From a virus, in UHGV virus genome UHGV-0134101: a DNA stretch of 10,004 bases. The stretch is one strand, 5' to 3'. The position numbers and the translations under genes were made by a program. Under the pieces are notes generated by a model, which was not told the DNA's origin, did no database searches, and saw only the letters and a list, made by a program, of their open reading frames with translations. Shown piece after piece: positions 4,535 through 5,474 of this stretch. Within the stretch, counting starts at the first letter, position 1; each line of letters starts with the position of its first letter.

Positions 4535-5389
4535 TCAGTCCCTCGCCCATGACGGGATTTCAGTCTGGCCATAGTCCTTGCCAGCGAAGTTCTCGGATAC
4601 GCGAGTCTGATTGCGGGCTGGCTGCTTGATGCCTTTCGGTTCAAACAATCCCTGCCAGCCGTTCGCAATGCTCTGGTTGATGATTTCTTCAGGCTGATAT
4701 CCGCTGCACTTGCAACGCTCGAGCAGGTTGATGGCCTGGGTAACCGTCTGCTGAGACTTGATCGGTTTCTTCAGGTCGCGACGATAATCGACCCATGACT
4801 TCCAGACTGAAACTGACAGCCATTCAGGAAGGTCAACACCGGCCGGATCGAACGAAGCCGGTTTGGGGGATTTAGGGGGTTTATTAATATTGTCTTTATT
4901 GTCTTTTGTATGTTTGTCTTTTGTGTTTACCTGATTTGGGTAAGTGTCGTTACCTGATTCGGGTAAACATTTCTTACCTGATACGGGTAAATTTACCTCT
5001 TTCAGGTAAACTTTATTTTCGTTACCTGATTTGGGTAATTTCACCCATTCGCTGACCGCTTTGTTAATCCCCACAGTTCGCCCGATTTGGGTAAATACCC
5101 CGCGCTTAACTAACGCGCTTTTAGCAGCAGAGCATTTGTGTGGGAGGATGCCGGTCAGGGCAGATAACTGATCATTGCTTACCCAGTCTGCCTTTTTGTT
5201 GAAACCGTATGTTTTGCGCATTACTGCCATGAAGACCAGCAGCTGATGCTGAGACAATCCAGCCAGCATGACAGCCTCCAGAAGTTCATTGGCGATGCGC
5301 GTATAGCCATCATCAAGATCTGCCACGCGCGGCTCCTTAGGTGCCACGTCAGGCACAGGGAAATTGATTACTTCGGCAGTGTTTGCCAT
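4535..5389 (-). CDS. Replication initiator, lambda O-like N-terminal domain with a linker and distinct C-terminal domain, 284 aa
   Basis: ORF track 4535..5389 with an AGGAG Shine-Dalgarno 7 nt upstream. The N-terminal region (GYTRIANELLEAVMLAGLSQHQLLVFMAVMRKTYGFNKKADWVSNDQLSALTG) matches the phage replication protein O N-terminal DNA-binding pattern. The iteron array lies inside the Lys/Pro/Asn-rich linker-coding part, as for lambda ori within O. Confidence 0.8.
   Translation of the reverse strand: MANTAEVINFPVPDVAPKEPRVADLDDGYTRIANELLEAVMLAGLSQHQLLVFMAVMRKTYGFNKKADWVSNDQLSALTGILPHKCSAAKSALVKRGVFTQIGRTVGINKAVSEWVKLPKSGNENKVYLKEVNLPVSGKKCLPESGNDTYPNQVNTKDKHTKDNKDNINKPPKSPKPASFDPAGVDLPEWLSVSVWKSWVDYRRDLKKPIKSQQTVTQAINLLERCKCSGYQPEEIINQSIANGWQGLFEPKGIKQPARNQTRVSENFAGKDYGQTEIPSWARD
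4881..4926. other. AT-rich DNA-unwinding-element-like tract adjacent to the iterons
   Basis: TTATTAATATTGTCTTTATTGTCTTTTGTATGTTTGTCTTTTGTG directly abuts the iteron array; in gene orientation it lies downstream of the iterons, as in lambda ori. Confidence 0.6.
4927..5038. repeat. Origin-of-replication iterons: five 17-bp repeats TTACCTGAT(T/A)(T/C)GGGTAA
   Basis: Copies at 4927-4943, 4950-4966, 4974-4990, 4993-5009 (variant TTACCTCTTTCAGGTAA) and 5022-5038, plus a half-copy at 5084-5094. Each has palindromic TTACC...GGTAA ends; spacing is 19-29 bp. Confidence 0.75.
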
Positions 5390-5425
5390 AATTGCTCCTG
5401 TGAATTGATCCAGTTAATTCCACCA

Positions 5426-5458
5426 GAAAGCTGTTGGTGTTCGAGCACCACAGCTTTC
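5426..5458. other. Long stem-loop in the intergenic region between the CII-like and O-like genes
   Basis: GAAAGCTGTTGGTG/CACCACAGCTTTC arms, about 13 bp with one bulged T, around a TTCGAG loop. On the + strand (antisense to the operon) it is followed by CATTTCTGTTGTTCTC. Confidence 0.5.
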
Positions 5459-5474
5459 GCCATTTCTGTTGTTC

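Follow-up and report, generated by a model that had tools for sequence, protein, structure and literature searches.

The 10,004-nucleotide stretch of DNA analysed here (virus genome UHGV-0134101, referred to as the window, with coordinates counted from its first letter) is the early region of a lambdoid prophage, in which the operon of the rightward type is located on the − strand. A cII gene and a gene for an O-like replication initiator are separated in this operon by an 85-bp gap (5390-5474), for which the RefSeq annotation gives nothing. This gap and the start of the O-like gene very probably form a pO-oop-type cassette, which would yield a short antisense RNA at the cII-O spacer. Judged by sequence comparison, the element is best described as an unannotated copy of a known small antisense RNA gene, that of the OOP RNA of phage lambda and the M3 RNA of phage phi80, and not as an element of a new kind. 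The interval has the sequence features of such a cassette, is homologous to lambda pO/oop and to phi80 M3, is conserved, and contains a hairpin that shows covariation and is selected on the + strand. The features of the element are as follows.

5364-5369, + strand: −35 hexamer TTGATT, located opposite codons 7-9 of the O-like gene
5384-5392, + strand: extended −10 sequence TGcCATAAT, with TG at 5384-5385 and CATAAT at 5387-5392, separated from the −35 hexamer by a 17-bp spacer
5400, + strand: predicted transcription start G5400, the 8th base after the −10 hexamer, assigned by homology to lambda OOP and phi80 M3
5400-5423, + strand: 5' hairpin GUGAAUUGAUCCAGUUAAUUCCAC, homologous to the lambda oop 5' end, from fold prediction
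5426-5458, + strand: 13-bp terminator-type hairpin, from folding and covariation
5459-5473, + strand: interrupted U-rich tail GCCAUUUCUGUUGUU, with the 3' end of the RNA expected near 5459-5473
5392-5473, + strand: full match to the covariance model described below, 86.8 bits, E = 1.6e-18

Promoter sequence over the start codon of the replication gene

The initial annotation, which was made from the sequence of the window alone, proposed a −35 hexamer, a 17-bp spacer and a −10 hexamer over the start of the O-like gene, followed by a 13-bp hairpin and a U-rich stretch. The coordinates of the promoter are all correct in the sequence, and the hairpin and the U-rich stretch are present as described. 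The CAT of the −10 hexamer (5387-5389) is, on the other strand, the ATG at which the O-like open reading frame (ORF; 4535-5389, − strand) starts. The hexamer as a whole, CATAAT, is identical to that of lambda pO, and the −35 hexamer is aligned with TTGAGT of lambda and TTGATT of phi80. Transcription is predicted to start at G5400, because lambda has the same geometry, in which CATAAT is followed by 7 nt and then by G. Lambda OOP begins at base 38,675, with the −10 sequence at 38,683-38,688, that is, 8-13 nt to the right of it (PMC5869508); in the lambda sequence, base 38,675 is the G that is reached by CATAAT and 7 nt. The annotated phi80 M3 RNA begins at the equivalent G. In the window, G5400 directly adjoins the complement (5395-5399) of the Shine-Dalgarno sequence (AGGAG) of the O-like gene. 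The −10 positions A5391 and T5392 fall between this Shine-Dalgarno sequence and the ATG, so that their mutation would be silent for O.

A scan of viral contigs with the hairpin pattern gives 120 loci, which contain 102 unique related sequences. In these loci, the opposite strand carries a gene with its start immediately upstream of the hairpin, and the N-termini of this gene are diverse and apparently unrelated, such as MANTAEVINF, MTNANPKRQA, MNTNQLNINN, MPSKSKRVNK, MSSLYQHYNQ, MAKKPRYFHT and MSGTKTEVNA, and the other side of the hairpin is occupied by many different cII-type genes. A hexamer that overlaps the start codon (CATAAT, CATACT or CATTAT) is present in 99 of the 102 unique loci, at a distance of 31-34 nt before the hairpin, and the −10 sequence is the most strictly conserved part of the cassette. 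When the loci are classified by the first 10 residues of the downstream gene, 25 of the resulting 39 peptide classes, some of which are interrelated, have a −35 sequence with at least four of six matches at a distance of 16-18 bp, as compared with 11% of control CAT positions. For the O-like genes, the coding constraints are read directly from the alignments. Their codon 2 is NCA without exception (Ala, Ser or Thr) and thereby gives the TG of the extended −10 sequence, and their codon 8 always ends with C, whether it encodes Ile, Leu, Phe or Tyr, which gives the G of TTG. According to these comparisons, the promoter is conserved independently of the coding sequence of O.

In loci L089-L208, the ATG is nearly always preceded by ATT or AGT, because the −10 hexamer CATAAT or CATACT is fused to the start codon.

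Structure, strand and 3' end of the predicted RNA

The hairpin at 5426-5458 consists of a 5' arm (5426-5434 and 5436-5439, with T5435 bulged), a 6-nt loop (5440-5445) and a 3' arm (5446-5458). The 71-nt RNA corresponding to 5400-5470 folds with −24.9 kcal/mol (z = −4.3), and only 1 of 200 shuffled sequences folds equally well. The initial annotation made its proposal depend on the conservation of this hairpin in related prophages, and the hairpin is kept in them with compensatory substitutions. In an alignment of 27 sequences, phi80 included, 98.6% of the cells of the 13 hairpin pairs hold standard pairs, and changes on both sides occur at 8 of the 13. None of 500 covariation shuffles reaches the observed values, and pairing is only 39-44% when the pairing partner is slid by 1-3 columns. 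The 49 distinct hairpins collapse to 16 distinct stems, indicating that the loops are free to vary and the stems are kept.

The strand on which this structure is selected is indicated by the cells that are not Watson-Crick pairs. When read on the + strand, these cells are G·U in 29 cases and A·C in 2 cases (13 and 1, respectively, among the 16 unique stems). The selected structure is therefore that of the antisense (+ strand) RNA, because the sense mRNA would have mismatches in place of the G·U pairs. Approximately 10 sequence classes can be distinguished among the 5' segments, including GUGAAUUG...AAUUC, GCAA...UUGC, GUUAC...GUAAC and GUAAUAGC...GUUAUUGC. The 5' hairpin is assessed only by folding of each sequence, because these classes pair in different alignment registers. 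Nearly every one of the 49 distinct 5' segments is predicted to form a hairpin from the presumed +1 position onwards. In 43 of the 49, the + strand gives the more stable hairpin, and the mean values are −4.3 kcal/mol on the + strand and −1.9 kcal/mol on the − strand. A stem at the extreme 5' end is expected of a stable small RNA.

No conserved ORF is found within the RNA. Two candidates are rejected. The + strand ORF at 5246-5482 (78 amino acids) starts upstream of the presumed +1 position, is antisense to O, and cannot be conserved where the downstream gene differs. The 31-codon − strand ORF that starts from the ATG at 5463 is lost in relatives that have GCCTTT in place of GCCATT.

The tail at 5459-5473, GCCATTTCTGTTGTT, is T-rich but interrupted. 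The tail is conserved in the family as GCC(A/U)UUU(C/U)UG, and the family as a whole has a split U-tract, in which UUUCGCC is followed by U3-5; the window has one of the poorer versions. Some read-through into cII is likely, because the tail is weak. The sequence of phi80 at the tail position is UUUUUCUUUUCUU. The interruption of the U-tract, CGCC or CACC (5459-5462 in the window), is itself conserved in nearly all members of the family (UUUCGCCUUUU), but not in phi80 or lambda.

Relation to lambda OOP and phi80 M3, and distribution of the element

On the oop strand of lambda, TTGAGT, a 17-bp spacer, CATAAT and GACTCCT are followed by GTTGATAGATCCAGTAATGACCTCAGAA. In the window, TTGATT, a 17-bp spacer, CATAAT and TGCTCCT are followed by GTGAATTGATCCAGTTAATTCCACCAGAA. 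The identity between 5364-5429 of the window and the lambda sequence from pO through oop +30 is 72% over 67 aligned columns, and 26 of 38 aligned columns match between the end of the −10 sequence and +30. There is no relationship between the two beyond approximately +30 (identity of 52%, with gaps). The proposal that the element is oop-like is supported, as a matter of homology and not of resemblance alone. Like lambda OOP, the cassette occupies the cII-O junction in antisense orientation to the pR operon and has two hairpins, and its promoter is located a few hundred bp from the origin iterons inside O. Its phi80 equivalent and its homology to lambda pO/oop agree with this proposal. Unlike lambda OOP, which is 77 nt long and overlaps the cII coding region by 52 nt (PMC5869508), the RNA of the window does not overlap the cII ORF. 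In addition, its terminator hairpin is located in the 85-bp spacer, whereas that of lambda is within the cII coding region, its 3' half is unrelated in sequence to that of lambda OOP, its U-tract is interrupted whereas lambda has U6, and the cII partner is of the YdaT/phi80 type, a protein family different from that of lambda CII.

The phi80 counterpart is found in two GenBank records. An old record of the phi80 early region (X13065, 4164-4223) gives an "M3 RNA" between cII and gene 15, and the phi80 genome (JX871397, 36229-36288, complement) gives a 60-nt noncoding RNA, "M3 RNA, homolog of lambda oop RNA", between cII (ending at 36213) and gene 15 (starting at 36299). A search of the available literature for "M3 RNA" together with oop finds nothing, so that the link to phi80 rests on these two records. 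The M3 RNA starts at the G that follows CATACT and 7 nt. Its short 5' hairpin is followed by a long second one, and the U-run at the end of the RNA is separated from the cII stop codon by 15 nt. The M3 RNA is aligned column for column with the element of the window. As in phi80, the RNA of the window (5400 to approximately 5473) would be contained wholly within the spacer between a phi80-type cII gene and an O-like gene. The window is thus closer to phi80 M3 than to lambda OOP in that it has a phi80-type cII gene and no cII overlap. Nevertheless, the hairpin sequences of the two have diverged, phi80 has a good U-tract (UUUUUCUUUU) unlike the window, and the 5' segment of the window is of the lambda-like GUGAAUUGAUCCAG type, not of the GUUACUUGCCGUAAC type of phi80. 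The window thus combines the phi80 arrangement with a lambda-like 5' segment.

Antisense RNAs at the oop position are transcribed in other lambdoid prophages. In the Salmonella prophage BTP1, an RNA sequencing transcript termed OOP(BTP1) is located at the position of lambda OOP (PMC7067206). This RNA is described as overlapping the cII 3' end, as in lambda (PMC7067206), and is likened to that of the window by position only. The Rac prophage of E. coli K-12 (L210) shares the YdaS-YdaT-replication layout, but its ydaT-ydaU gap is 12 bp long and has no oop-type element.

The lambda and phi80 types of the gene can be compared in 80 viral contigs that contain close relatives of the O gene of the window. 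Most of these contigs share the promoter and the 5' segment of the window. In four of them (L013, L017, L018 and L055), the same promoter and 5' segment are followed by a lambda-type terminator, which reads AACGCTCGGTTGCCGCCGGGCGTTTTTT in L013 and shows slight divergence in L017, L018 and L055. Over the promoter and 5' segment, the identity of L013 to the window is 94%, and the terminator of L013 is the canonical lambda tO hairpin, confirmed to be located inside a lambda-type cII gene. The remaining contigs have, like the window, a GAAAGC...GCTTTC hairpin in a longer spacer. The oop-type gene itself is thus mosaic: one pO/5' module is joined to either of two 3' ends, according to which cII gene adjoins it. 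In the window, the similarity of the O module ends at approximately 5470 and the similarity to phi80 cII begins at 5473, consistent with a mosaic joint inside the RNA gene.

A covariance model was built from 56 relatives, with the window and its three closest relatives excluded. This model gives the full match to the window listed above, and matches Gifsy-1 (NC_010392, approximately 40,286-40,376) with 83.6 bits and mEp237 with 89.1 bits; lambda-type loci give weak matches restricted to the 5' part. In a scan for the distribution, with each species represented by one genome, the pattern is matched 74 times, and 54 of these matches fit the model over its full length (62-93 bits). All but two of these 54 copies are found in Enterobacteriaceae, the genera of which include Enterobacter, Klebsiella, Citrobacter, Kluyvera, Leclercia, Raoultella, Pseudescherichia and Yokenella; the exceptions are an unclassified bacterium and a "Kocuria" contig of 517 bp. 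Of the pattern matches in unrelated phyla, one has a marginal model score (35 bits) and the rest fail. The intergenic type is also found in phages Gifsy-1/2 and mEp237 and in several Klebsiella phages, and among the records examined it is annotated in phi80 only. Within E. coli, the 141 bases around the element are present with 100% identity in six complete chromosomes, and with at least 80% identity in 63 of 5,426 genomes. The prophage of E. coli CX21 has the identical sequence over 5340-5480.

The Kocuria copy (L236; NZ_JAVHZE010000119.1, labelled Kocuria sabuli) is a full-length enterobacterial element (81.5 bits), and is most likely a contamination, being a 517-bp contig in an actinobacterial assembly.

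A scan of 5300-5500 of the window against Rfam 15 gives no match at E up to 10, and a scan of the lambda oop, phi80, Gifsy-1 and mEp237 regions gives no match at the site. Rfam appears to hold no OOP family, because lambda's own oop is unmatched, and the negative result for the window is uninformative for the same reason.

Proposed action, alternative explanations and genomic context

The following course of events is proposed for the antisense RNA. A sigma-70 promoter, with its extended −10 sequence over the O-like start codon, would fire against the early (pR-type) operon from approximately G5400. The product would be an RNA of 60-74 nt, extending from 5400 to approximately 5459-5473, with a 5' hairpin, a terminator-type hairpin and a weak U-tract. 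It would be perfectly complementary to the cII-O intercistronic mRNA, from beside the Shine-Dalgarno sequence of O to just before the cII stop codon. Pairing would give a long duplex, the cleavage of which by RNase III may destabilise the cII message, by analogy with lambda OOP, an antisense RNA that controls cII in an RNase III-dependent manner (PMC5869508). The presumed regulatory target is the gene at 5475-6017 (− strand), upstream of the antisense region. A second role, compatible with the first, would be that the convergent promoter damps pR transcription into the replication genes and the origin, again by analogy with lambda, in which pO affects replication (PMC3985674).

Several observations weigh against this interpretation. 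The promoter match taken alone is not above chance within the window. A promoter scan gives the site at 5364-5392 with 9 of 12 matches and with TG, the −35 hexamer TTGATT accounting for only 4 of 6; however, 7 promoter-like sites are found in the window, as compared with 9.2 ± 3.5 expected from shuffles. The significance of the promoter comes from the comparison with other phages, and not from the motif. The sequences used for the covariation are related, and the independent compensatory events correspond to approximately 6-8 stem variants, fewer than the cell counts imply, although this evidence all points the same way. The U-tract is broken (UUUCGCCAUUUCUGUUGUU), and a terminator scan of the window does not call the hairpin at 5426-5458, because the tail contains too few T. 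Termination may be inefficient, in agreement with the initial annotation, which had noted the interruption and regarded termination as uncertain. The covariance model matches phi80 at the M3 position only weakly (21.9 bits, E = 0.004) and does not find lambda itself. Finally, the hairpin ends at 5458 and the tail at approximately 5473, before the cII stop codon at 5475-5477, and the lambda mechanism may not transfer unchanged to the RNA of the window because of this missing overlap with the cII ORF. The missing overlap is less of an obstacle than it may seem, because the RNase III cut in lambda is itself reported to be located 12 nt downstream of the cII coding sequence (PMC5869508).

It is possible, though unlikely, that function resides in the promoter, with the RNA being mostly a by-product. 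In this case, pO-type convergent transcription would limit the entry of pR transcription into O and the origin and would thereby set the replication rate, and the hairpin would stop the polymerase before cII. This explanation is compatible with control of cII by the antisense RNA. It fits the −10 sequence being the most strictly conserved part of the cassette and the distance of approximately 300-460 bp between the promoter and the origin iterons, and it agrees with the results for lambda, in which inactivation of pO lowers plasmid copy number and raises pR read-through, and changes of the oop RNA level in trans have little effect on replication (PMC3985674). However, the 5' hairpin at +1 and the strand bias of the G·U pairs point to selection on the RNA itself, and OOP transcribed from pO suppresses CII activities in lambda (PMC5869508).

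More speculatively, and with a still smaller probability, the M3-type cassette may be a portable module, the primary target of which is the replication gene and not cII. It would then control the copy number or replication timing of enterobacterial lambdoid prophages, and would not be a lysis-lysogeny RNA. This idea arises because the −10 sequence is fused to many different, apparently unrelated initiator genes and the RNA never touches the cII ORF. The duplex would begin next to the Shine-Dalgarno sequence, and polymerases arriving at the start of the gene would collide there with the transcription from the cassette.

It is very unlikely that the hairpin acts in the sense (− strand) early mRNA, as an attenuator or terminator or as a processing or stabilising structure between cII and O, with the + strand promoter motif being incidental. 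The − strand folds as well (−24.2 kcal/mol, z = −2.25), the A-tract located 5' of the stem gives a short UUUC after the stem on the − strand, and the covariance model matches the − strand of the window with 20.9 bits, albeit at the hairpin only. The wobbles, however, fit the + strand by 29 to 2 and are A·C mismatches in the sense mRNA, and the stem is followed on the − strand by UGGUGGAAUUAACUGG, which contains no U-tract. A sense-strand terminator or processing hairpin is rejected because of this strand bias and the lack of a U-tract. Furthermore, a role in the sense mRNA leaves unexplained the CATAAT or CATACT at the starts of many replication genes and the homology to lambda pO.

Even less credible is the explanation that the spacer is a mere recombination boundary, at which lambdoid phages exchange cII and replication modules, and gives no RNA product. 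The element is located exactly at mosaic joints, with O-module identity to approximately 5470 and phi80-type identity from 5473, and the genes on either side of the hairpin differ widely between loci. Such a boundary predicts sequence identity, and not compensatory changes with free loops, and predicts neither the G·U strand bias nor the conserved −10 sequence. The explanation that a chance promoter-like motif, sites of this kind being no more frequent in the window than in shuffles, is located beside a chance hairpin without function is opposed by all of the comparative evidence, and is effectively refuted by the hairpin covariation, the independent model match (E = 1.6e-18) and the 54 full-length copies in species-representative genomes, nearly all from Enterobacteriaceae.

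The genes and sites around the element are as follows.

6378-7154, + strand: gene for a LexA/S24-type repressor (cI-like)
6048-6293, − strand: cro/YdaS-like gene
5475-6017, − strand, with the stop codon at 5475-5477: phi80-type cII gene of the YdaT family, 180 amino acids (Pfam YdaT_toxin, E = 3e-28)
4535-5389, − strand: O-like replication initiator gene (Pfam Phage_rep_O, E = 6e-33)
4925-5094, inside the O-like gene: six 19-bp iterons of the TTACCTGATTTGGGTAA type
3678-4550, − strand: DnaC/IstB-like loader gene, after the O-like gene

From 5473 onwards, the cII gene of the window is 98.7% identical to that of phi80, which likewise encodes 180 amino acids. Each copy of the iteron is itself palindromic, and the iterons are presumed to be the replication origin, approximately 300-460 bp from the pO-like promoter.

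Two further regions of the window were noted. On the 3' side of the cI-like repressor gene, the + strand at 7271-8285 contains an ORF of 194 amino acids, which has no Pfam match, and a YafO-family toxin gene (7846-8265). The terminator at the end of this pair (8264-8285, with TTTTGTG after it) is the strongest intrinsic one in the window, and the region looks like a moron expressed in the lysogen. The 47-nt stretch at 9635-9681 (+ strand) matches positions 237-283 of the bacterial 16S rRNA model (32.2 bits, E = 2e-6) and forms a perfect hairpin. It is real phage DNA, because it is also found in the E. coli CX21 prophage and in the viral loci L116, L119 and L205. It seems to be located just upstream of the true start of a gene for an ECs_2282-family zinc-binding protein on the − strand.

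With the antisense element, an unannotated 85-bp gap of an E. coli prophage gains a credible regulatory RNA gene with a polarity and a likely start. The basic picture of lambdoid regulation is unchanged by this result. The modest gain is the finding that the gene is mosaic, is not tied to one replication or cII gene, is widely distributed and is missing from Rfam. A curated family would allow annotation pipelines to label the intergenic oop type, and would provide a defined target for studying how lambdoid prophages balance cII expression against replication.

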